Source: an uncultured delta proteobacterium (lineage in GTDB: Bacteria > Desulfobacterota > Desulfobacteria > Desulfobacterales > SG8-13). From it: DNA of 64,000 bases. Where the stretch lies: NCBI GenBank assembly GCA_963848135.1, contig CAWKCK010000018.1, positions 76,938 to 140,937 on the forward strand, in the 5' to 3' direction. Under the pieces are notes generated by a model. That model saw nothing but the letters and a program-made list of their open reading frames with translations, was not told the origin of the DNA and ran no database searches. Of this stretch, positions 1,552 to 12,009 are shown one piece after another; positions within the stretch are counted from its first letter, which is position 1; every line of letters begins with the position of its first letter. A program made the position numbers and the translations under genes.

Positions 1552-1895
1552 TTATTGATCCGTCTGGTTAGGGCGGAAGCCAGGATCGCCTATCACGTCA
1601 GGTATTGGTATAAACTTGTTGCATCGGCTTTTTCACTACGTTACCACTACCGGGCAGTACCCGGTTGGCAGCGTTGAAGGTGCATGATTTGAGAAATTCA
1701 TTGAAAATTCCTTAGAGAGGGAGGTATTATCAAAAAACACGTGAAAAAGGGTTCAGACGGGTCTGAAAAACGAATCGGTAGGGTCTTAAACGGTTTCACG
1801 TCTCTTTCGACCCTTCAAACCAAAACAAAAGCATCGAAAACACGGAATAAGGTTTGTGGAACCTCTTTTTGGGGGAAGTCATCGCATAATCCAGG
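1552..1895 (+). mobile_element. IS1380-family remnant (transposase C-terminus, 3' non-coding region and probable right inverted repeat)
   Basis: LLIRLVRAEARIAYHVRYWYKLVASAFSLRYHYRAV* resembles a degenerate IS1380 transposase C-terminus; ends in TCGCATAATCCAGG (revcomp CCTGGATTATGCGA), like the CC(T/C)(A/G)GATT IS1380 termini. Confidence 0.6.
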
Positions 1896-2055
1896 CTTTA
1901 AGAACTTTACGCTTTACCGGAAAAAACTGGTCTACAAAACGACATGCTCTAACTTATCCCGTAGCGGTGAGGTAGCCCAAACCACAGACAGTGTATATCG
2001 CCCATGGCGTATACTCTGTCTGTGCCTGTCCAGGAAACGCTCAGGAAGGAAGCCC

Positions 2056-3801
2056 ATGCGATTGAGAGCTTTGGCCCTTGATTACGACGGGACGATCGCC
2101 CAGCACGGGAAACTCCACCATGATGTCCGCAGCGCAATTGAGGAAGCGCGCGGTCAAGGCATCGCCGTGATCCTTGTCACCGGCCGAATCCTGAAAGACC
2201 TTCGACGTGTGGCTGTTGACCTGGATTTCCTCGACGCCGTGGTGGCCGAGAACGGTGCGGTCCTGGTATTTCCCGAAAAGAGCAGGACAATGATCCTGAC
2301 ACATCCGCCTCCTCCCGTTCTGATTGAGGAATTAAGACGGCGAGACATCCATGCCGTTGCCGGCGAATGTATAATCGAGGCGGATGCAAGCCATGCTCAG
2401 TGCATCCTGGAAGTCATCCGTGAGTTGGAGCTGCCCCTCGCCATCACGTTCAACCGCAGCCGGCTCATGGTCCTTCCCCTTTCCGTCAGCAAGGCGACGG
2501 GTCTTCATAAGGCGTTGTCCTTCTTTCGACTGTCACCGCACAACACCATTGCAATCGGAGACGCAGAGAACGACCACGCGATGCTGGATCTGTGTGAGAT
2601 CGGCCTTGCAGTACAGTGGGGCAGCCCGGCCCTCAAAGCGGTGGCCGACGAGGTCCTCGAGGGACCCGGCCCGGGGGCTATCGCCGCATACATACGAAAA
2701 ATTTCCGCCGAACCAAGGCTTCCCAAGGTGCACAGGCGGCGAAAAATGCTGCTGGGTTTCGTAGAGGATGGCAAGCCGCTCTACCTTGAAGTGAGAGGGC
2801 GGAACATTCTAATAACAGGTGACTCAGGATCAGGGAAATCGTGGCTCGCAGGACTGCTCTGCGAGCAGCTTATCCTGCAAGATTATAGCGTTTGCGTTAT
2901 CGATCCCGAAGGGGATTACTCACCTCTAGAAGACCTACCAGGAGTCGTGGTCCTCAGGGAAGAGTGCGGGCCGAACTTCGAAAACCTTGAGCAGGTATTC
3001 CGCTACCCAGAGTCGAGCATAGTCGTCGACCTCTCGAAGATGTCTCCGGTGAAGCGCCTCGAATACGTTCCAGCCCTATTGGAGAAGCTCGGCGCCCTTC
3101 GCCGTCAGACAGGATTGCCGCATCGCATCTTTGTGGATGAGGCACACTATTTCCTCTACGGGCCAGAGGCCCACCACGTGCTGGACCTCGAGATGGCCTC
3201 ATATACGCTCGTTACCTTCCAGGCATGCCGGATGGATCCCTCGGTGGTGCATGCTTCCGAGGCGATCATCATTACCCGAAAGAGCGATCCTGCCGAAGCC
3301 AGCCGTCTTCATTCACTTCTCGGCGGCCAAGGTAGCGACATGGAATGGCAAGCGTTCCTGGGGTCCCTGAAGTCGAATGAAGCCGCCCTGCTTCAATGCA
3401 CCGACGAATCGAAATGCCGACTAAGCAGCTTCCGGATCGCATCGCGGCTGACGTCCCACATCCGCCACCGCCACAAGTACCTGGACGCTCCCGTTTCCCC
3501 AAAAGAAGCTTTCATATTTACTTCCCAAGGAGGGCTGGCGGTCCGGTGCGCCAACAGTCTGACGGAGTTTATAACCTTGGTTTCGGCTTGTTCTTCGGAA
3601 GTCCTGAAGAATCACATGCGGCGCCACGACTTTTCGCGATGGATCCGGGATGTTTTTCGGGACCTTCCATTGGCGTCGCAGGTTCACGAATTAGAGATGC
3701 GGTATCACATCATGCGTGACTCTGAAATCAAGGTGTCCCTAAAGAAGTTGATCAAGGATCGATACATGCGCAAAACTCGATCAGTATTGGCCACAAACTG
3801 A
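2056..3801 (+). CDS. HAD-IIB phosphatase fused to HerA/DUF87-like P-loop ATPase and DUF5752-like C-terminal domain
   Basis: LALDYDGT, VTGR, SKATG, IGDAEND (HAD motifs); GDSGSGKS, IDPEGDY, FVDEAH (ATPase); HDFSRWIRDVF tail; AGGAAGG RBS before ATG 2056. Confidence 0.85.
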   Translation: MRLRALALDYDGTIAQHGKLHHDVRSAIEEARGQGIAVILVTGRILKDLRRVAVDLDFLDAVVAENGAVLVFPEKSRTMILTHPPPPVLIEELRRRDIHAVAGECIIEADASHAQCILEVIRELELPLAITFNRSRLMVLPLSVSKATGLHKALSFFRLSPHNTIAIGDAENDHAMLDLCEIGLAVQWGSPALKAVADEVLEGPGPGAIAAYIRKISAEPRLPKVHRRRKMLLGFVEDGKPLYLEVRGRNILITGDSGSGKSWLAGLLCEQLILQDYSVCVIDPEGDYSPLEDLPGVVVLREECGPNFENLEQVFRYPESSIVVDLSKMSPVKRLEYVPALLEKLGALRRQTGLPHRIFVDEAHYFLYGPEAHHVLDLEMASYTLVTFQACRMDPSVVHASEAIIITRKSDPAEASRLHSLLGGQGSDMEWQAFLGSLKSNEAALLQCTDESKCRLSSFRIASRLTSHIRHRHKYLDAPVSPKEAFIFTSQGGLAVRCANSLTEFITLVSACSSEVLKNHMRRHDFSRWIRDVFRDLPLASQVHELEMRYHIMRDSEIKVSLKKLIKDRYMRKTRSVLATN

Positions 3802-4642: not shown

Positions 4643-5068
4643 CTACCGGACGCGATAAACCTTTTTCCATGGTTGCTTCTTGATGCTGTTGTAATCGGCG
4701 AGGGCGCGATACAAAGCGCCCACCGCGAGTTCGGCACAATGGAAGTGTTCCGCCGGCAGGGTTTCCAGGAAATTAATGACAGCCTCCGGAGTGTTTTCCC
4801 AAGCTTCGTTGATTGTTTTTCCTTCTACCAAGAATGAAACGGTGTTGGCGCAGGCGTTGGTATGCAGGCAGCCGTTGGTTTGATAAGCAACCGACTGGAT
4901 AATCCTTTCACGGACGATCAGGTAAACTTCGACGGTATCTCTGCAAGCACCGGTATGCTTCCCATAACCATCCGGGTGTTCGATGGTTTCGCGGCGATCG
5001 GAACGCAAAGCCATTTCGAGAAATTGTCTTGAGTGATCCTGCCAGAAATCAAAGCTTTTTCCGGTCAT
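4643..5068 (-). CDS. NifU/IscU N-terminal-like Fe-S scaffold protein
   Basis: GACRDT, GC..TNAC, HCAELA cysteine motifs. Confidence 0.8.
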   Translation of the reverse strand: MTGKSFDFWQDHSRQFLEMALRSDRRETIEHPDGYGKHTGACRDTVEVYLIVRERIIQSVAYQTNGCLHTNACANTVSFLVEGKTINEAWENTPEAVINFLETLPAEHFHCAELAVGALYRALADYNSIKKQPWKKVYRVR

Positions 5069-5118
5069 TTTACGAATACATGCCCACCAAAGAAGTCAAA
5101 AACGAGAAGAATTTGCCT

Positions 5119-5221
5119 TATACGGCTTTTGAAAAAATAAACCCCGAAATTCGGAAGGGTGGTATAAGTGGTTGGTGAAAAAACAGTTCGAATAACGGAA
5201 CGGTTATTGACAACCGCTATA
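5119..5221. repeat. MITE-like dispersed repeat, copy 1 (~100 bp)
   Basis: Aligns along its length with 49800-49900, including identical TCGAATAACGGAACG; TATA(G)CGG-like inverted ends. Confidence 0.7.
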
Positions 5222-5243
5222 AACCGGCCGGGAGCGTATGGCG

Positions 5244-6110
5244 TTAACTCTTTATATTCTCCAGCACGCCTTCCCATATTGATTTTACCGCTTTTCCCGC
5301 CGCGGTTGTTGAGTCGTATTCGAAAATCGTCTGGCCCTGAACCATGGCGTGGGTGAATACCGGGTCGAAAGGAATGTTTCCCACCATGGTCAAACCATTT
5401 TGCAACGCATGGGATTGTATTCTTTGGGTCATTTCCGTGTTGAGATCGTGCTTATTCACACTGACCATGGCCGGTATGTTAAAGTGAGCGGCCAGCTCCA
5501 CGACCCGCTGCATGTCGTGTATGCCCGACACTGTCGGCTCGGTAACGATCAGCACGGCGCTCGCGCCGCCAATGGCGGCAATGACCGGGCATCCGATACC
5601 CGGTGGACCATCTGTGATAATGAGGGGAAATTCCAATTTTTCAGCAATTTTTCTGGCTTCCTGACGGACCAGGTTCACCAACTTGCCCGAATTTTCCTCG
5701 GCAATCCCCAGACGTGCGTGTACCATCGGTCCAAACCGGGTGGAAGACATAAACCATTGGCCGCAGGTATTCAATGGAAAATTCACTGCCTTCTCAGGGC
5801 AGAAATGATGGCACACACCGCAACCCTCGCAGGCCGTCTTATCCACCACGAAGTCGTCGCTGATGGCCTCAAAGAGGCAGAGATCTTTACATATCCCGCA
5901 GCTTGTGCATTTTTCGCTGTCAATGATGGCTGTATGACCGGATTGAAAATCATGGCGCTCTTTAACATCGGGGGCCATGATCAAGTGAAGATCGGCCGCG
6001 TCGACGTCGGCGTCGCAAAGAACCTTGTTCTGGGACAACGCGGCAAAGGCGGATACAAGACTGGTTTTTCCCGTCCCCCCTTTTCCGCTGACAACAATCA
6101 ACTCTTTCAT
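5244..6110 (-). CDS. MinD/Mrp-type P-loop ATPase with inserted 2x[4Fe-4S] ferredoxin
   Basis: SGKGGTGKT, DADVDAADL, two CxxCxxCxxxC motifs, DGPPGIGC; AGGAG RBS before ATG 6110. Confidence 0.9.
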   Translation of the reverse strand: MKELIVVSGKGGTGKTSLVSAFAALSQNKVLCDADVDAADLHLIMAPDVKERHDFQSGHTAIIDSEKCTSCGICKDLCLFEAISDDFVVDKTACEGCGVCHHFCPEKAVNFPLNTCGQWFMSSTRFGPMVHARLGIAEENSGKLVNLVRQEARKIAEKLEFPLIITDGPPGIGCPVIAAIGGASAVLIVTEPTVSGIHDMQRVVELAAHFNIPAMVSVNKHDLNTEMTQRIQSHALQNGLTMVGNIPFDPVFTHAMVQGQTIFEYDSTTAAGKAVKSIWEGVLENIKS

Positions 6111-6174
6111 TCGGTTAACTCCTGTTTGCGGCATCACATTCTGGATGTAATCTGAAGTATATATCTCCGGAATT

Positions 6175-7020
6175 TCAGCCGTGCTGAACTATTTCGTTTA
6201 TGTGTTGATAAAGATCCAGAAACTTTTCCTTGTATTCCGGCAACGCGTGAACAATCATTTCACCGTTTGAATATGCTTCGGCGATCCGGCGATCAAACGG
6301 GATCACCATTAAGATCGGCAAGCCGACTCGATGCGCATAGTCGCGCACCTTATCATCGCCCAGACCCATGCGGTTGACGACCAGCCCGGAGGGAATGTTC
6401 AGGGTTTGTACCGCTTCGAACGCCAGTTTCAAGTCATGCAGGCCAAACGGTGTGGGCTCGGTCACCAGCAATACGAAATCCGTATCACGCATGGATGCGA
6501 TGACCGGACAAGACGTACCGGGCGGTGCATCGATGATGGTCAGCTTGTCCGGATTGGCGTAAGACCGCACCTTCTTGATCAGCGGTGGTGCCATGGCTTC
6601 ACCGACCCTCAGGCGCCCGTGAACGAATTCAAGTCGGCCGTGATGACCGCATTCGATGGATCCGATTTCACGTTCTCCCTTCATGATGGCATCAACCGGG
6701 CAAACCTCCCAACATCCTCCGCAGCTATGGCACAGTTCCGGAAAAGTCAAGATGGCTGTGTCGGGCATGACGGCAATGGCCTTGAACTGACATAGCGCAC
6801 CGCATTCTCCGCAAAAGGTGCATTTTTTTTCATCAATTTCCGGAACCGAAACGGTAACACGCTCTTTTGGGTCAAATTCGGGCCGGACAAACAAATGGGC
6901 ATTGGGTTCCTCAACGTCACAATCGAGCAGCTGAACGCCTTTTTCAATCGTCATGGCCAGATTGGTGGCGACTGTGGTTTTGCCGGTACCCCCTTTCCCG
7001 CTGGCTATACTGATAATCAT
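6175..7020 (-). CDS. MinD/Mrp-type P-loop ATPase with inserted 2x[4Fe-4S] ferredoxin
   Basis: SGKGGTGKT, DCDVEEPN, two CxxCxxCxxxC motifs, DAPPGTSC. Confidence 0.9.
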   Translation of the reverse strand: MIISIASGKGGTGKTTVATNLAMTIEKGVQLLDCDVEEPNAHLFVRPEFDPKERVTVSVPEIDEKKCTFCGECGALCQFKAIAVMPDTAILTFPELCHSCGGCWEVCPVDAIMKGEREIGSIECGHHGRLEFVHGRLRVGEAMAPPLIKKVRSYANPDKLTIIDAPPGTSCPVIASMRDTDFVLLVTEPTPFGLHDLKLAFEAVQTLNIPSGLVVNRMGLGDDKVRDYAHRVGLPILMVIPFDRRIAEAYSNGEMIVHALPEYKEKFLDLYQHINEIVQHG

Positions 7021-7460
7021 GCACTGCCTCCTCTTCGACCACCGCCGCCCATGCCTCTGCCGCCGCCCATGCCTCTGCCGCCACCCAGCCCCTGACCGCC
7101 GGTTCCGGCATGCAGAGGCGCATTTGCCGCGGTGGACGAGTCCATTTCACCCTTTTGGCAGGCTTTGACAAGATCTTTGATCGTGCCGGCTTGGCCGGTA
7201 TACAGGATGATGCCGGCCGCATTCAAGGTTTGCACGGCATTGGGACCGCAATGTCCGGTAATGAGTGCTTCGGCCCTTTGGGAAGAAATAAACTGGGCTG
7301 ATTGAATGCCGGCACCGCCGCCGAGCATGGCGTTTTTGTTTTCTATGACCTCAAAGCTCATGTCCTCGGAGTCGACGATGAGAAAATAGGCGCATCTACC
7401 GAACCTGGGATCGAGTTGGGCATTAAGGTCTTTTCCGGACGAACTGACTGCGATTTTCAT
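7017..7460 (-). CDS. NifB/NifX family (Orange-protein-like) with Gly/Arg-rich tail
   Basis: MKIAV..DPRFGRC..GAGIQ..GPNA; GGGRGM repeats. Confidence 0.85.
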   Translation of the reverse strand: MKIAVSSSGKDLNAQLDPRFGRCAYFLIVDSEDMSFEVIENKNAMLGGGAGIQSAQFISSQRAEALITGHCGPNAVQTLNAAGIILYTGQAGTIKDLVKACQKGEMDSSTAANAPLHAGTGGQGLGGGRGMGGGRGMGGGGRRGGSA

Positions 7461-7586
7461 TTTTCATTCCTCCTGTGTTTTCAATTACGGCTTTCTATCC
7501 GCATTCGGCATTTGATGTATGAAAGCCCCATCTGTTGTGCGTATTAAATCGGTGCCTTGGCCGGATGGCTGCCAGAAAAATGCGGG

Positions 7587-7919
7587 CTAGTGGTCGCAGA
7601 TATTTGTGTTGGTCTGCAGGGTATTATCCAGATAACTGCGGACCAGGGTTTCCGGTTCCAGCGCCGGCGCACCGATGAAGACTTCAATATTTCGCTCCTG
7701 AAACAAACTGATGGCGTGTTGGCCCATCCCCCCGGCGATGATCACATTGGCCCCCAGCTCGCCGAGCCATTGGGGAAGAACGCCTGGTTCATGGGGCGGA
7801 GGAACGATCACCTCAGTTTTTTTTATCTCGTTGTCCTCTACCTCGATTAAGGCAAATTCTTGGCTGTGGCCAAAATGAGCGGTTAATTTTCCTTCTGCCA
7901 ACGGTATCGCAAATTTCAT
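7587..7919 (-). CDS. NifB/NifX family protein
   Basis: HFGH, PPPHEPG, IAGGMG, C-terminal N.CDH. Confidence 0.85.
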   Translation of the reverse strand: MKFAIPLAEGKLTAHFGHSQEFALIEVEDNEIKKTEVIVPPPHEPGVLPQWLGELGANVIIAGGMGQHAISLFQERNIEVFIGAPALEPETLVRSYLDNTLQTNTNICDH

Positions 7920-7986
7920 AATTCCCCTCCTGAGTGTTTATCTTGGCTCGAAAGCTTCTCAGCCGATTGCGTTTCGTGGTAACAGA

Positions 7987-8349
7987 TCAAACCCAGTGAC
8001 CTTCCACATTAGCTTCTTCTGCATGTGAGAGTTCACCTTTTTTATAGCGCTCGATGGCCTCATCAATGCGCCCCCCGTCACCGATAACAACCTTAATTTT
8101 TGCGGCTTTCAGAACTTTAAATGCTTTCGGCCCGCAGTTGATGGTTATCAAGACATCGGGCGCGTGAGCAGCAATCGACCGGGCAGCCTGAATTCCGGCG
8201 CCTTGGGAAAGATCCAGATTCTGACTGTTTTCCACGACTTCAAAATCCATGGTGTCCGGATCAATGACCAGAAATTGTTCCGCGCGACCGAAACGTGGAG
8301 CAATTTCCGCGGATAAATTTTGACCTGCAGTCGGTACCACAATCTTCAT
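7987..8349 (-). CDS. NifB/NifX family protein
   Basis: RFGRA, QGAGIQAA, CGPKAF, ANVEGHW. Confidence 0.85.
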   Translation of the reverse strand: MKIVVPTAGQNLSAEIAPRFGRAEQFLVIDPDTMDFEVVENSQNLDLSQGAGIQAARSIAAHAPDVLITINCGPKAFKVLKAAKIKVVIGDGGRIDEAIERYKKGELSHAEEANVEGHWV

Positions 8350-8370
8350 GAGAACAGCCCCCCTTTCATG

Positions 8371-8442
8371 TTATGAGTATATTCTCATAATAGGGCCGCG
8401 GCCTCGTTCCGTCAAGTAAATATTTTTGGCATATGCTCATAA
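8371..8442. promoter_or_regulatory. Two palindromic operator-like sites in divergent promoter region
   Basis: TTATGAGTATATTCTCATAA (8371-8390) and TTTTTGGCATATGCTCATAA (8423-8442). Confidence 0.7.
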
Positions 8443-8505
8443 TAAAATTGGCAGCCGGATGAAGGGAACTATATTATGATCAAATGATCAAAAAGAACTT
8501 TACCT

Positions 8506-8868
8506 ATGACACGACGGAAAAACCACGATGCGTATCCACTTATCCTCTAACGGCATCGTTCGTTCCGAGGGGAATCCCTGTGCTCGGTGAGCTCCATCTG
8601 ACGCTGGAAGAACTCGAAGCCATCCGTCTCAGTGACGTTGAAGGTCTGGATCAGCAAGCAGCGGCAGATCTGATGGAGGTATCCCGCCAGACTTACGGCC
8701 GGGTATTGTCCAGAGCCAGAAACATCGTCGGAAGCAGGGCAAACAATTAAGATCGGCGGCGGCGTATTCAAGGTCCGCGGGGCGCAAAGGCGCTGCCGCA
8801 GAAGGGGAAACAGAAGGACGAAGAATCCTGACGCCCGCCACTGCAGCGAGCAGCTTTTCGGCCAATGA
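8506..8868 (+). pseudogene. DUF134 (UPF0251) sigma4-like HTH regulator, frameshifted
   Basis: Core LTLEELEAIRLSDVEGLDQQAAADLMEVSRQTYGRVL is intact, but start MTRRK (8506) and tail GQTIKIGGG lie in a different frame. Confidence 0.75.
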
Positions 8869-8872
8869 ACGC

Positions 8873-8894
8873 GGGGCGGCCTGCTGGCCGCCCC
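8873..8894. other. GC-rich hairpin after DUF134 gene
   Basis: GGGGCGGCC-TGCT-GGCCGCCCC perfect 9-bp stem. Confidence 0.5.
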
Positions 8895-8938
8895 ATCGAT
8901 TCCATTTTCAAGCCACCGTTATCAAACGGGAGACCATC

Positions 8939-9439
8939 TTGAAAATTGCCGTAAAAGCTAACGGCCCAAACCTTGATTCCCGCGTGAGTATGGAAGAAGA
9001 TATCGTTTTTTCTGAAACCGATATCAAGAATCTCACTCTGAGAAAGGCAGCCGTTTATGCTGGATTCACGGTTCTTTTGAATCAGGCCGGACTCGATTTT
9101 CCCATGGTCGATCGGGTGATCATTAGCGGTGGATTCGGTCGGTACCTTGGCATTGAAAAGGCCATTTCCATTGGCTTGCTGCCGGGTATCAAGCGAAACA
9201 GATTTCAATACCTTGGTAACAGCTCGATCGCCGGAGCCTATATGGCCTTGCTGTCTGACCACCACCGCAAGGAGGAGCGTGACATTTGCAACAATATGAC
9301 CTACATCGATTTCTCCAGTAATGTTAAATATATGGAGGAACTTACCTCGGCGATGTATTTACCCCATACAAACATGAATGCATTCCCCAGTGTCATTGTT
9401 GAGTCGACGATGTCAGATTCCCGTACGACATCGGCGTGA
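8939..9439 (+). pseudogene. Chimeric remnant: NifB/NifX N-terminus fused to C-terminal domain of ASKHA/RACo (DUF4445) corrinoid activator
   Basis: MKIAVKANGPNLDSRVS followed by DIVFSETDI..KAAVYAG..GGFGRYL..IGLLP..GNSSIAGA..AMYLPHT. Confidence 0.7.
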
Positions 9440-9585
9440 AGAACGGTGCGTATAATTATGTCAATACCAAAAAGTGACAAATCACTGATAGAAATTTACC
9501 CTTGAAACAACCATTAGAAATTATATCATAAATCCAGATAGAGCGTGGTCATGCAAATGGGTAATATTGAAGATGGCTAAGGGTT

Positions 9586-10167
9586 TTAATACTCAATGCC
9601 AGCCTGTGCTTTGATGCCCGCATTGTAGGGGTGCTTTAACTCTTTCATGTCAGTAACGAGATCGGCCATGTTCACAATGCGTTTGGGCGCGCTACGCCCA
9701 GTGAGAACGACATGCAAGTTCGATGGCCTGCCCAGCAGAATTTCGCTCAAATCTGCCTCTTTAATAAGACCAAAATCGATAGCCACCAATATTTCATCAA
9801 GTATAATCAGATCATATTCGGAGAGGGACAAAGCATTGCGGAAATAATCCAGTCCCTGCTCCGCGATGCAGATGTCCAGGGGCTCGCAGGTTCTTGAGTG
9901 GACGAACCCTTCACGCCCAAATCTTTTTATCTTGATAGGGAGCCTGAATTTTATCAATGCATTTATTTCACCGATATTCTCCTGTCCCTTCATGAATTGA
10001 ATAATGAGAACTGAGAGCCCCTGACCGGCGGCTCTCAGGGCAAGCCCAAAAGCAGCCGTTGTTTTCCCTTTTCCATTTCCGGTGAAAATGATGATAAAAC
10101 CGGAGGCAGCCTTTCGCAAAAAATCTATTGGGTGTGCATGCATGGTGTGTTTGGTTTTTTTTTGCAT
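9586..10167 (-). CDS. cobO: Cob(I)yrinic acid a,c-diamide adenosyltransferase (CobO/BtuR)
   Basis: TGNGKGKTTAAFG, QFMKG, LDEI, LTGR, C-terminal GIEY. Confidence 0.9.
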   Translation of the reverse strand: MQKKTKHTMHAHPIDFLRKAASGFIIIFTGNGKGKTTAAFGLALRAAGQGLSVLIIQFMKGQENIGEINALIKFRLPIKIKRFGREGFVHSRTCEPLDICIAEQGLDYFRNALSLSEYDLIILDEILVAIDFGLIKEADLSEILLGRPSNLHVVLTGRSAPKRIVNMADLVTDMKELKHPYNAGIKAQAGIEY

Positions 10168-10225
10168 CTATGGTGGTTTCAAATCGAAATGACGGTCACC
10201 GGGTGCGAAAAAACGGAATTGAATT

Positions 10226-10741
10226 TCAGCTGCGAGAGCATGGGGTGCAGACGGATTTGCCGTCCACGATTCTGGTTCGAGATTCCATTACGGATTCACC
10301 ACAGATGCTGCAAGAAACAGAATTTCTGATTGCGGCAGGAGCAGGTTCAGGTACTGCAACGAGGGTCACCGAGAGAATATCTTCCTGAGGAGCAGACAAT
10401 ATCCATTCGGTAAGTACATTTCGATCCTCGCCGATACTATCTGGCAAACCATCGATATTAAATACGACGCGAACGGCCTTTCCTAAGGATCGGGAATAAA
10501 TGGTGTATACGTGCTTTCCATAGTCGCTAAAAATGAGGTTCCCTTTACCGAAAGTGCAACCGGTGATGCACTGGAGCGCATCAACACCACATGCATCATT
10601 CTCGACAATTGAGACAATTTCCTCATCTTCTGATCGTGCTGTTTCGATAGCTTTCAGACCAGCCGAAGCCATTCTGTATCCGATGGCGAGCCCGGGGCAC
10701 TCATGTCCGTGAAATTCAACTATTTCATCATATGTAGCCAT
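10226..10741 (-). CDS. FmdE family protein with C-terminal zinc finger
   Basis: FHGHECPGLAIG, ACGVDALQ..GCTFGKGN, CxxC...CxxC. Confidence 0.85.
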   Translation of the reverse strand: MATYDEIVEFHGHECPGLAIGYRMASAGLKAIETARSEDEEIVSIVENDACGVDALQCITGCTFGKGNLIFSDYGKHVYTIYSRSLGKAVRVVFNIDGLPDSIGEDRNVLTEWILSAPQEDILSVTLVAVPEPAPAAIRNSVSCSICGESVMESRTRIVDGKSVCTPCSRS

Positions 10742-10874
10742 GTTATCGTTCGCTTCTAATTGCCAGATTTTGGTATAAGCGGATGCGATGAGGTAATAAG
10801 GGTCTCTTAAAAATATACCAGACACTGAAATCCCATCCACCTAAATGATGAAATCAGGCTTTAAGAAACTGCTA

Positions 10875-10894
10875 TTATGAGCATAATCCCATAA
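10875..10894. promoter_or_regulatory. Third copy of palindromic operator, upstream of fmdE-cobO
   Basis: TTATGAGCATAATCCCATAA, 17/20 match to consensus. Confidence 0.6.
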
Positions 10895-11101
10895 TTAGAA
10901 TTTCATCATAATTGTTTATTTGTCAATTCCACAGCGTGGTATAATTCTATTATATTAAAGGATAAAGTATAAATTACGTGCCTAAATCAGAAATATAGTA
11001 AAATTCCACATTTGATCTGCTAATCCAATCAACCGGTTGGTCGATTACAACTCCAACAATCCGTTTTTTCCATCCCAGCGCTTTTTTCACTGCGACTCAT
11101 G

Positions 11102-11592: not shown

Positions 11593-12009
11593 TGGGAAGT
11601 CATCTGATTTGATATTGATCAGCTAATTTTTACCTTGAGATCCTCCATTAAGAAAATATTAATTTCTGGCTGAATACACAATTAATTTAACCCCCGAGAT
11701 TCGAAACCTCCTTGACCAAGAACCATGTCAGTCCTACCTTTAAAAATATGATGGAACTCACATTGCAACCTCTACTGCCTCAACTCTCCATTCGATTCTT
11801 ATAGACCATCCCTGCACCGAAAGATAATACGCAGGCGCAACAGATCCCGACCCTATCCCCACAGGCAAGCTTCAAGCCATGAAAACAGGCCATCGAAAAT
11901 TACCCTTCTCAGGCCTCCGGAGAGTACTCGCGCTCCGGGGGCATGCTTGATCGTATAATTTCAAGCCATACAAATCTACGGAATATATTCAAACTAAGGA
12001 GGTCACACT

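Follow-up and report, generated by a model that had tools for sequence, protein, structure and literature searches.

The closest described counterpart of the locus presented here is the orp system of Desulfovibrio vulgaris Hildenborough, whose two divergent orp operons are under the control of OrpR and sigma-54 (PMC8359166, PMC6345978). OrpR, a large protein, activates as a sigma-54 enhancer-binding factor and has a [4Fe-4S] PAS domain. The targets are homologous, namely MinD-like Fe-S ATPases (Orp3/4), the NifX-like Orange protein Orp8 and Mrp (Orp9); in both systems, putatively so in the present one, control comes from a short stretch between divergent genes that holds two or more binding sites, and a redox/Fe-S theme is common to them. 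The difference lies in the switch itself: here the promoters are predicted to be sigma-70-like, and the candidate regulator is an HTH protein of 100-150 aa placed for repression.

Small dimeric HTH repressors that sense metals or Fe-S clusters, such as those of the Rrf2 (IscR/NsrR) and ArsR/SmtB families, bind a palindromic operator over the promoter, have their own gene in the regulon and act on targets that handle cofactors. In the scheme we propose DUF134 (UPF0251) would work alike, with no relationship to them in sequence or fold. We put a probability of about 0.75 on the reading that the palindromes of this locus are operators of a DUF134/UPF0251 homodimer, an autoregulated repressor, and that the DUF134a encoded on C2 of the same genome acts here. 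An earlier note on this DNA had suggested DUF134 as the protein that binds the site, and knew of no characterised DUF134 operator; we too found no described operator or function of DUF134 in the literature, and its suggestion is strongly supported in silico. For this we computed the enrichment, position and conservation of the sites, as well as the fold and the predicted dimer of the protein.

Palindromes and promoters in the window

Searched with up to three mismatches through the window (the whole 64 kb stretch of DNA that was analysed), the pattern TTATGAGCATATGCTCATAA gives exactly three matches, at the very coordinates of the three 20-bp palindromes reported earlier, and dinucleotide-preserving shuffles give matches in 0/100, the chance expectation being 0. 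The consensus was derived from the window sites, and scoring was therefore repeated with an independent matrix of 40 unique sites upstream of DUF134 genes, taken from other named genomes only. A fourth palindrome, O3, beyond the three first noted, came from the genome scan. The putative operators and the predicted promoters are as follows.

8371..8390, no strand: putative operator O1, TTATGAGTATATTCTCATAA; pattern search (two mismatches to TTATGAGCATATGCTCATAA) and matrix (32.0 bits, the best of the genome)
8423..8442, no strand: putative operator O2, TTTTTGGCATATGCTCATAA; pattern search (three mismatches) and matrix (27.0 bits)
8474..8493 (C18:85411), no strand: putative operator O3, variant palindrome TTATGATCAAATGATCAAAA; genome scan
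10875..10894, no strand: putative operator upstream of fmdE-cobO, TTATGAGCATAATCCCATAA; pattern search (three mismatches) and matrix (26.5 bits)
8387..8415, minus strand: predicted sigma-70-like promoter of the NifX-like operon, TTGACG-17-TATTAT; consensus scan, 10/12 matches
8448..8475, plus strand: predicted sigma-70-like promoter of DUF134b, TTGGCA-16-TATATT; consensus scan

O1 lies 22 nt ahead of the ATG of the NifX-like operon (8349) and shares bases with the minus-strand promoter's -10 hexamer, O3 overlaps the -10 of the DUF134b promoter, and O2 sits between the two divergent -35 boxes, its centre 52 bp from that of O1 and 51 bp from that of O3. In related populations position 8451 is A, which turns the DUF134b -35 box into TTGACA. 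A paralogous cluster on C3 has a predicted promoter (TTGACA-17-TATTAT, 11/12) of the same architecture as the NifX-like operon of the window, and the consensus scans place a -10 over the C3 site as they do over O1 and O3; in Syntrophaceae-type loci the palindrome occupies the -35/-10 spacer and terminates in TATAAT. Over the fmdE, CGGC and TatD sites the same kind of scan called no sigma-70-like promoter, and the TTATGAGCATAATCCCATAA site is found about 134 nt ahead of the probable fmdE ATG (10741). The predicted repressor geometry would apply to the O1, O3 and C3 sites, without extension to fmdE, CGGC and TatD. No sigma-54-type -24/-12 match occurs within 800 nt of the sites; the whole window holds 12 such matches versus 19.9 expected, the nearest at 11752.

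This layout bears on a possibility that we regard as unlikely, namely that DUF134 binds the site as an activator or dual regulator, for instance from O2 or from the fmdE site. A -35 box does follow closely on O2, and likewise on the upstream sites that b-type promoters have, and the missing promoter calls under the fmdE, CGGC and TatD sites would also agree with activation. Most sites, however, are over -10/+1 or in the spacer, promoters so near to consensus should need no activation, and the spacing of paired sites (49-53 bp) suits cooperative repression.

Genes next to the sites and their distribution

Profile search confirmed the gene context as it had been read from the sequence: three NifX-like genes, two ATPases and a NifU gene, a divergent DUF134, and FmdE-CobO behind the third site.

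7987..8349, minus strand: NifX-like gene 1 (Nitro_FeMo-Co, 78.3 bits), first gene of the operon
7587..7919, minus strand: NifX-like gene 2, matching the C-terminal domain of MrpORP (Orp9); NF041136 (positions 265-365, 131 bits)
7017..7460, minus strand: NifX-like gene 3, its tail repetitive and rich in Gly, Met and Pro; profile match
6175..7020, minus strand: MinD/ParA-type ATPase with two 4Fe-4S motifs, Orp3/Orp4-like; profile match
5244..6137, minus strand: second MinD/ParA-type ATPase with 4Fe-4S motifs; profile match
4643..5068, minus strand: NifU_N/IscU-like scaffold gene, which ends the same-strand gene row; profile match
10226..10741, minus strand: FmdE-domain protein with a C4 zinc finger; profile match, open frame reaching GTG 10840
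9586..10167, minus strand: CobO/BtuR corrinoid adenosyltransferase, 58 nt behind fmdE on the same strand; profile match
8939..9439, plus strand: chimeric remnant, NifX-like start and RACo 3' part; profile match and related-contig comparison

MinD ATPases with ferredoxin-type 4Fe-4S motifs, Orp3/Orp4-like at the family level, number two in the window and two on C3. The genome has no match to the full-length MrpORP (Orp9) equivalog NF041136 at its cut-off of 450 bits; MrpORP is split: C2 encodes its N-terminal part (366-368 bits, NF041136 positions 3-250), and the window encodes its C-terminal part, as NifX-like gene 2 (130-131 bits, positions 260-365).

A genome-wide scan had been proposed as a check on the palindrome, and it yields a multi-locus set: six sites in 6.03 Mb at up to three mismatches, and six matches to the independent matrix at 24 bits or more, three of which are the window sites, versus a single match (24.4 bits) in the reversed genome. 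The predicted regulon includes the operon of three nifX-like genes, two ATPase genes and a nifU-like gene (O1, O2), the promoter of a dead DUF134b (O2, O3), fmdE-cobO, a DUF5320/NifX-like/ATPase cluster with two ATPase genes on C3, a CGGC-domain gene, a TatD gene and DUF134a-mrp. As predicted in this way the regulon is mainly ORP-like, made of NifX-like proteins, MinD/ferredoxin ATPases, Mrp, NifU-like, DUF5320 and CGGC proteins.

Sites gathered by their likeness to the consensus occur at least once in 33 of 41 related genomes, which are not independent of each other, and the reversed-pattern control is found in 3/41 with one match each. Ninety-seven sites belong to 33 DUF134-positive genomes versus nine in eight DUF134-negative ones. 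Nitro_FeMo-Co genes adjoin sites in 13 loci of the relatives, where NifU_N, MinD/Fer4 ATPases, Mrp and CGGC genes are met as well; with NifX/ATPase genes recurring beside sites both here and in the relatives, the proposed tie of the site to an ORP-like module is supported.

The co-occurrence of palindrome and DUF134 elsewhere, another check proposed in the earlier note, is borne out as well. In an order-level sample of relatives, 19 of 20 loci with a-type or short DUF134 genes have a site (up to five mismatches) 24-42 nt ahead of the start codon, and all ten b-type loci (10/10) have a variant palindrome in that place, the O3-type variant being found almost only ahead of b-type DUF134 genes. 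Named genomes of several phyla carry a site (up to five mismatches) within 100 nt upstream of DUF134 in 53 of 79 loci, versus 1/290 control windows; Syntrophales, Omnitrophota, Hydrogenedentes, Sedimentisphaerales, Zixibacteria and Acidoferrum are among them, and 17/79 DUF134a loci are without a recognisable palindrome. The gene behind DUF134a, in 33 sampled named loci, codes for Mrp in 11 and for a NifX-like protein in 14.

The inclusion of FmdE and CobO in the regulon, also put forward earlier, stands in part. The site itself is real and strong, but it is kept in three genomes of the genus only (the window genome, G003 and G006). The orthologues in G005 (two loci), G009, G011 and G029 have no such site upstream, and 97 site-flanking ORFs of the relatives include no FmdE gene. 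Since the site is missing in these orthologues, the corrinoid theme rests on one lineage-specific operon. RACo, which had been counted in as well, has to be withdrawn. The 166-aa frame at 8939..9439 consists of 17 codons of a NifX-like start, a junction near 8990 at which related contigs diverge, and a RACo_C_ter part covering profile positions 124-260 of 261; a functional RACo is ruled out here, the frame being a deletion remnant in which a 3' fragment is fused to the NifX-like start.

DUF134 genes and the predicted protein

8484..8868, plus strand: b-type DUF134 pseudogene; PF02001 match and comparison with related contigs

The gene beside the sites had been taken for that of the regulator. 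Its family assignment is sound (48.1 bits to PF02001, gathering cut-off 27, profile positions 8-77 of 98), but the gene is dead: counted from the ancestral ATG at 8506, it has lost 1 nt in an A-run near 8519-8523 and 11 nt after 8733, both present in related contigs, and its open frame 8484-8750 is truncated. The genome's only intact copy is the DUF134 on C2 (87.2 bits, positions 5-96), an a-type protein, thus of a subtype other than the window's, with 137 aa, a C-terminal CxxC...CPxC ribbon and a putative operator of its own upstream; it is co-transcribed with an Mrp ATPase gene. Because the copy in the window is dead, the acting regulator is most likely this C2 DUF134a.

DUF134 matches Pfam Sigma70_r4_2, and its AlphaFold model (pLDDT 83.6) superposes with its core on 2h27_D, an ECF sigma region 4, with an rmsd of 1.0 over 48 columns. 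Top Foldseek matches are again sigma region 4 (rmsd 0.7-1.0 over about 49 residues), with E only about 0.04 and none reaching 0.001, so that the sigma4-like HTH noticed earlier is upheld by family match and superposition, with weak Foldseek E-values. The core has the same three-helix HTH fold as region 4 of E. coli sigma-E on -35 DNA (2h27); unlike ECF sigma factors, DUF134 has no region 2, is a predicted dimer and would read a palindrome instead of the asymmetric -35 element. The homodimer prediction scores 0.78 versus 0.01 for the best control, a mark reached by 20/30 solved pairs and 1/23 single chains in a calibration that is only approximate, since our own alignment was used; at least 95% of the contacts are common to the runs, and partner pLDDT is 78 or higher. 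DUF134 is thereby predicted to be a sigma-region-4-like HTH protein forming a symmetric homodimer. Its best sequence match among solved structures (E 6.4e-4) is the N-terminal HTH of the SorC-type DeoR of Bacillus subtilis (7bhy), over 37 residues (profile positions 39-75) that comprise the HTH only; effector domain, operator and biology are not common to the two.

Absence of a palindrome, seen in 17 named loci, concentrates in three recognition-helix variants, RILRNAR (6/6), RILH[KR]ARQ (3/4) and SRPTYHRIL (3/3); a residue-to-base specificity code did not emerge. These variants have a bearing on the supposition, in our opinion quite unlikely, that the palindrome is bound by some other transcription factor, whose regulon simply includes the DUF134 genes as conserved members. 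The link between DUF134 and the site is positional throughout, and genome G018 keeps five sites ahead of NifX-like, CGGC and ferredoxin-like genes while neither the family model nor a protein search detects DUF134 in it. That genome, however, is only 85% complete; three near-complete DUF134-negative genomes have zero sites, and the four other DUF134-negative ones have one each. The near-fixed position of the site before DUF134 across several phyla, subfamilies and helix variants that track different or missing palindromes, and the prediction of a symmetric dimer that has a DNA-binding fold all argue for DUF134 itself.

It is very improbable that the palindrome acts as a 5'-leader RNA hairpin, controlling stability or translation, and not as DNA. 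Before DUF134 genes only 10-12 nt separate the end of the repeat, which immediately precedes the ribosome-binding site, from the start codon, and at least part of it is for this reason probably transcribed. Yet among 40 unique sense-oriented sites the mismatched pairs are of the G-U type in 17 cases and of the A-C type in 18, and one-sided changes (90) versus pair-preserving double changes (12) indicate that the sequence is conserved, not just the pairing; in several promoters the repeat contains the -10, which would leave a single arm to be transcribed, and O2-type sites lie upstream of the -35. That AT-rich promoters resemble one another by chance, or that the motif is a dispersed repeat without regulatory role, has a practically negligible probability, for although the motif is AT-rich with -10-like hexamers and the reversed genome gave its one match, shuffles and control windows are next to empty and the same gene families recur next to the sites in many genomes.

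Proposed repression and its possible signal

Repression is the likeliest reading of the role of DUF134. A symmetric homodimer would bind the 20-bp inverted repeat and, where the repeat lies over the -10 and transcription start or fills the -35/-10 spacer, would block RNA polymerase, so that DUF134 would repress its own gene together with genes for the handling of metal clusters that many anaerobes possess. In this scheme we infer the DNA binding, the sign of the regulation, the binding paralogue and the signal; as to which paralogue, a or b, would read which site variant, we go by the distribution of the variants only. The signal is probably the state of Fe-S or heterometal clusters, or the redox state, because the targets handle clusters, DUF134 is very often fused to a cluster-binding domain of the NifX-like kind and the homologous orp genes of Desulfovibrio are redox-controlled. 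Sensing may fall to the C-terminal 4-Cys ribbon, or else to a NifX-like domain that is either fused or supplied by a partner.

It would be tempting, though tentative, to go further and to see in DUF134/UPF0251 a widespread one-component family of anaerobes, present in many bacterial phyla and possibly in archaea, which reads the loading of NifX-like Fe-S/heterometal carriers and represses the ORP-type module via one 20-bp operator. Loading would be sensed via the fused NifX-like domain and, in unfused forms, via the 4-Cys ribbon or a partner NifX-like protein. If true, this would make the family the sigma-70 equivalent of the redox switch that OrpR and sigma-54 form in Desulfovibrio, and the enigmatic ORP module would gain a defined regulatory input.

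DUF134-NifX fusion-like proteins number 1098 at E of 1e-5 or better, and among the matches listed 120/120 carry both PF02001 and PF02579, the label in one source being 'predicted DNA-binding protein (UPF0251 family)/predicted Fe-Mo cluster-binding NifX family protein'. The DNA-binding domain is common to them and to the DUF134 genes of the window genome, all of which are unfused, and the function of the fusion is putative too. Such a widespread fusion points to cluster sensing rather than to the corrinoid theme. One fusion gene (G021, L032:163-921) has the same two-site promoter layout.

Distribution of the palindrome and its proposed reading by DUF134

The three copies of a 20-bp palindrome that the earlier note placed in the window were confirmed by the sequence itself and by a pattern search, and none of 100 shuffles of the window preserving dinucleotides gave a match at up to 3 mismatches.

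Palindromes of the window, compared with TTATGAGCATATGCTCATAA
8371-8390, palindrome O1, 2 mismatches
8423-8442, palindrome O2, 3 mismatches
10875-10894, palindrome before fmdE, 3 mismatches

The window is C18:76938-140937 of the source genome (6.03 Mb; 18 contigs, C2, C3, C5, C17 and C18 among them). A scan of the whole of it, as the same note had proposed, returned 6 sites when 3 mismatches were allowed, 10 with 4 and 28 with 5, those of the first class outside the window being C3:29762, C5:578313 and C5:596710. To avoid circularity, a symmetric weight matrix was built from 40 unique sites taken only from DUF134 upstream regions in other, named genomes; this independent matrix recovered the same six sites at 24 bits or more (1 in the reversed-genome control), and 16 hits against 5 in the control at 16 bits or more. 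The second tier comprises two weaker sites inside a gene cluster on C3, a variant palindrome (O3) at 8474-8493 of the window, and C2:639310. An identical 20-mer of 13.1 bits, TTCTGGGCATATGCCAAACA or its complement, occurs in six copies (C3:755086, C5:125935, C18:595635, C2:287987, C17:528993, C17:1254992) and probably marks one end of some repeat or mobile element unrelated to the operator.

Among 41 related genomes of the same order (Desulfobacterales by record titles), 33 possess DUF134 (PF02001) above the cut-off, and the palindrome at up to 3 mismatches likewise occurs in 33, the reversed pattern in 3, once each. The DUF134-positive genomes hold 97 sites in total, 28 of the 33 having at least one. 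Nine sites fall to the eight negative genomes: none in G024, G034 and G036 (94-100% complete), one each in G019, G028, G038 and G040, and five in G018, before NifX-like, CGGC and ferredoxin-like genes. The latter genome, 85% complete and giving no DUF134 by family model or protein search, is the sole clear exception to the pairing; the ORF left of its sites (L050:790-1311) bears no relationship to the DUF134 profile.

Stronger evidence than these counts is the position of the palindrome before DUF134 itself, where the earlier note had suggested looking for it in other genomes and where it was indeed found. Of 20 a-type or short DUF134 loci of the relatives, 19 have their best match, with 5 mismatches at most, 24-42 nt ahead of the start codon. 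At b-type loci a variant palindrome resembling TTATGCTCAAATGAGCATAA or TTATGATCAAATGATCATAA, with no more than 4 mismatches and almost exclusive to these genes, lies 21-37 nt before the start in 10 of 10, usually with another site about 53 bp further upstream. A public genome collection supplied 80 named loci, 79 of them with sufficient sequence ahead of the gene; in 53 of the 79 a match with 5 mismatches at most lies no further than 100 nt upstream, as compared to 1 of 290 control windows. By record titles, Syntrophales/Syntrophaceae, Omnitrophota, Hydrogenedentes, Sedimentisphaerales, Zixibacteria and Acidoferrum are among the positive loci. A related palindrome with 6 mismatches was seen in a Methanobacteriota archaeon. 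The 17 named loci without a match (at least 9 mismatches) are concentrated in three recognition-helix variants (RILRNAR, 6/6; RILH[KR]ARQ, 3/4; SRPTYHRIL, 3/3), as would be expected if the protein itself reads the site, even if these numbers overstate independence because the groups are clades. A simple code, by which A, Q, H or P in SRxTF sets a GAGC versus a GATC/GCTC core, was rejected, since SRQTF proteins are also found with GAGC-type sites.

The sole intact DUF134 of the source genome is a 137-aa protein on C2, with the C2:639310 site a few bases before its start codon and a Mrp/NUBPL ATPase gene behind it. In the a-type alignment the HTH core is invariant and the C-terminal part holds a CxxC...CPxC motif; the tail of b-type proteins is rich in Arg. 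Foldseek with the confident AlphaFold model (pLDDT 83.6, pTM 0.62) returned no match at E ≤0.001, its best being region 4 domains of ECF sigma factors, superposed at 0.7-1.0 Å over about 49 residues; in a sequence comparison, the solved structure that matches best is the HTH of B. subtilis DeoR (E 6.4e-4). As a homodimer the protein passed the prediction at 0.78, the best control scoring 0.01, with contact agreement between runs of at least 95% and partner pLDDT of at least 78; in the tool's calibration, which holds only roughly here because our own alignment was supplied, 20 solved pairs out of 30 reached this mark, as did one single chain out of 23. The predicted interface (residues 17-26, 36-51 and 76-91) is symmetric, which would support binding to a palindrome.

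To our knowledge, sites of the CRP/FNR, Rex, NikR, Fur and Rrf2 types have arm sequence or spacing unlike those of the palindrome. Its reading as an RNA hairpin fails, because in 40 sites oriented by sense (400 arm pairs) mismatches of the G-U type are about as frequent as those of the A-C type (17 and 18) and one-sided changes (90) far outnumber pair-preserving double changes (12). Taking comparative genomics and modelling together, we consider it well supported, with a probability of about three in four, that DUF134 binds the palindrome.

Anaerobic bacteria and archaea commonly have DUF134/UPF0251, a family without an assigned function, which a precise predicted operator together with its promoter geometry and recurrent targets makes directly testable. 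The motif can be used at once for regulon annotation in metagenome-assembled anaerobes. Our search of the openly available literature found no publication on DUF134 function or its operator; in a Rex paper UPF0251 is a mere name in a mutation table, and passages of PMC11484787, on Mo sources in Methanococcus, hold nothing relevant. The papers listed for the motif itself deal with other subjects.

Predicted promoter anatomy and gene decay at the window locus

The gene context described by the earlier note is borne out by Pfam matches.

4643-5068, minus strand, NifU_N gene
5244-6137, minus strand, MinD/ParA-type ATPase with 4Fe-4S motifs
6175-7020, minus strand, MinD/ParA-type ATPase with 4Fe-4S motifs
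7017-7460, minus strand, Nitro_FeMo-Co (NifX-like) gene
7587-7919, minus strand, Nitro_FeMo-Co (NifX-like) gene
7987-8349, minus strand, Nitro_FeMo-Co (NifX-like) gene
8484-8750, DUF134 frame, divergent from the preceding row
9586-10167, CobO, behind the third site
10226-10840, FmdE, behind the third site

By consensus scan, the NifX-like operon is preceded by TTGACG-17-TATTAT (minus strand, 8415-8387), whose -10 shares four bases with O1, and the DUF134b gene by TTGGCA-16-TATATT (plus strand, 8448-8475), which runs into O3; O2 sits between both -35 boxes. The centres are spaced by 52 bp (O1-O2) and 51 bp (O2-O3), about five helical turns. A paralogous cluster on C3 has TTGACA-17-TATTAT over its site (11/12 matches), most DUF134 genes have a CTTGACA box before the palindrome at a gap of roughly spacer plus -10, and at Syntrophaceae-type loci the spacer is filled by the palindrome, which ends in TATAAT. 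Such overlap of the palindrome with predicted promoters is the geometry of a repressor. It was not seen at the fmdE, CGGC and TatD sites, over which the consensus scan called no promoter. A scan with a sigma-54-type pattern gave no match near the sites.

The neighbouring DUF134, which the earlier note proposed as the regulator, belongs to the short, Arg-tailed b-type subfamily and in the alignment with orthologues has two frame breaks. Contigs of related populations (88-95% alike) have one more G at 8519/8522 and 11 further nt after 8733; each insertion brings back the reading of the orthologues (from ATG 8506 to about 8868). Their -35 reads TTGACA where the window has TTGGCA; the 1-nt deletion is also present in a contig identical to the window, possibly from the same sample. 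None of the listed differences to the related contigs falls inside O1 or O2. The copy adjoining the sites is dead, and the acting regulator is not that gene.

Neither does RACo, counted into the regulon by the same note, stand: its frame (8939-9439) covers just positions 124-260 of the 261 in the profile of the RACo C-terminal domain and opens with 17 residues resembling the start of a NifX-like protein, and from about 8990 the related contigs part from the window. Judged by these features it is a deletion remnant and therefore has no claim to regulon membership. The decay across 8484-9439 (DUF134b deletions, weakened -35, NifX-like 5' end fused to a RACo 3' fragment) is specific to the source genome, intact forms of these genes persisting in related populations represented by sediment metagenome contigs.

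Two further features of the window deserve a mention. The third NifX-like gene has a repetitive Gly/Met/Pro/Arg-rich tail at 7020-7110, with near-identical 21-nt units present twice, and its stop overlaps the start of the next ATPase gene. A 686-aa ORF (1741-3801, plus strand) is an unusual fusion of a HAD-type hydrolase (Hydrolase_3) with a HerA/DUF87-like P-loop ATPase region.

Content of the predicted regulon

Elsewhere in the source genome, the C3 site belongs to the second, paralogous cluster (DUF5320, NifX-like, ATPase, ATPase, with a DUF3786 gene ahead), and the other sites to a CGGC-domain gene, adjoined by a rubrerythrin gene, and to a TatD-family gene. In the relatives, 97 ORFs flanking sites at up to 3 mismatches were surveyed; those outside the following families are assorted or have no family.

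Families among 97 ORFs flanking sites in relatives
Nitro_FeMo-Co (NifX-like), 13
TatD and/or divergent DHODB-type Fe-S flavoprotein, 7 loci, all from the family to which the window belongs
DUF134, 6 distinct genes
AhpC-type, 3
NifU_N, 2
MinD/Fer4 ATPase, 2
Metallo-beta-lactamase fold, 2
CGGC, 1
Mrp, 1
Aldehyde:ferredoxin oxidoreductase, 1
FmdE, 0

In a sample of 33 out of 59 loci from named genomes, the gene following DUF134a is NifX-like in 14 cases, Mrp in 11, HD in 2 (both Desulfofundulus, without palindrome), MinD/Fer4, DUF5320 and CN-hydrolase in 1 each, and unassigned in 3. The predicted regulon is chiefly an Orange-protein-like module. The corrinoid theme of the earlier proposal finds mostly no support, with RACo a remnant, FmdE missing among the flanking ORFs and the fmdE-cobO site limited to 3 of 8 orthologous loci.

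The fmdE site itself (26.5 bits) is kept upstream of orthologous fmdE in G003 (87% identity, 28.6 bits) and G006 (77%, 27.9 bits), both with cobO retained downstream, and is absent at the orthologues of G005 (two loci), G011, G009 and G029. On this comparison of sites fmdE-cobO is a genuine yet lineage-specific recruit. The source genome, G003 and G006 also conserve another inverted repeat ahead of fmdE, TATACCAC-N3-GTGGAAT (minus strand of the window at about 10931-10950; relatives' loci L114 and L115); it directly adjoins a TTGACA box on the upstream side and may be the site of another regulator.

An unexpected predicted member is the TatD-family hydrolase gene, which keeps a DUF134-type palindrome upstream (L003, 6711-6730; L049, L055-L057, L061, L100, L103); in relatives throughout the window's family the palindrome lies between TatD and the divergent gene of the DHODB-type Fe-S flavoprotein. 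An AhpC/TSA gene of G015 (L097:1400-1926, minus strand; likewise L096 and L098) carries TGA in frame precisely at the codon of the peroxidatic residue (…DFTFVU…) and therefore probably encodes a selenocysteine peroxiredoxin. Three genomes of the genus have, before this gene, a promoter-like stretch, TTGACT-17-TAATTA, that runs into a DUF134-type palindrome; the source genome has no close orthologue, its best match being 39% identical and without the site.

Orange-protein link and a possible signal

The Mrp encoded on C2 matches the N-terminal 250 positions of MrpORP (NCBIfam, about 367 bits), and the C-terminal NifX-like domain of MrpORP is matched at 131 bits by window gene 7587-7919; the same search found no full-length MrpORP in the source genome. 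These family matches tie the module to the Desulfovibrio Orange-protein complex, and the predicted operator and its target set connect DUF134 to the Orange-protein/NifX-like/MinD-ferredoxin module, whose cellular role is called unclear in the Desulfovibrio literature (PMC8359166). In D. vulgaris the orp operons are activated by OrpR, an enhancer-binding protein that works with sigma-54 and carries a [4Fe-4S] cluster sensitive to redox (PMC8359166, PMC6345978).

What the regulator senses is hinted at by a very common fusion of DUF134 with a NifX-like domain. In G021, a 252-aa protein (L032:163-921, minus strand) joins DUF134 (residues 2-96) to a Nitro_FeMo-Co domain (144-235), and its gene lies behind a two-site promoter laid out as at unfused DUF134 genes. 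A database search with it gave 1098 proteins at E ≤1e-5, and all 120 among the 120 matches listed (P0003-P0122) have both domains; one source names them UPF0251 DNA-binding protein fused to NifX-family Fe-Mo-cluster-binding protein. Given this fusion, the cluster-handling targets and the selenocysteine peroxiredoxin and rubrerythrin neighbours in some regulons, our most economical guess is that the signal is cluster or redox state. The fusion of about 250 aa is widespread, its records including Desulfocarbo indianensis and Pseudodesulfovibrio tunisiensis.
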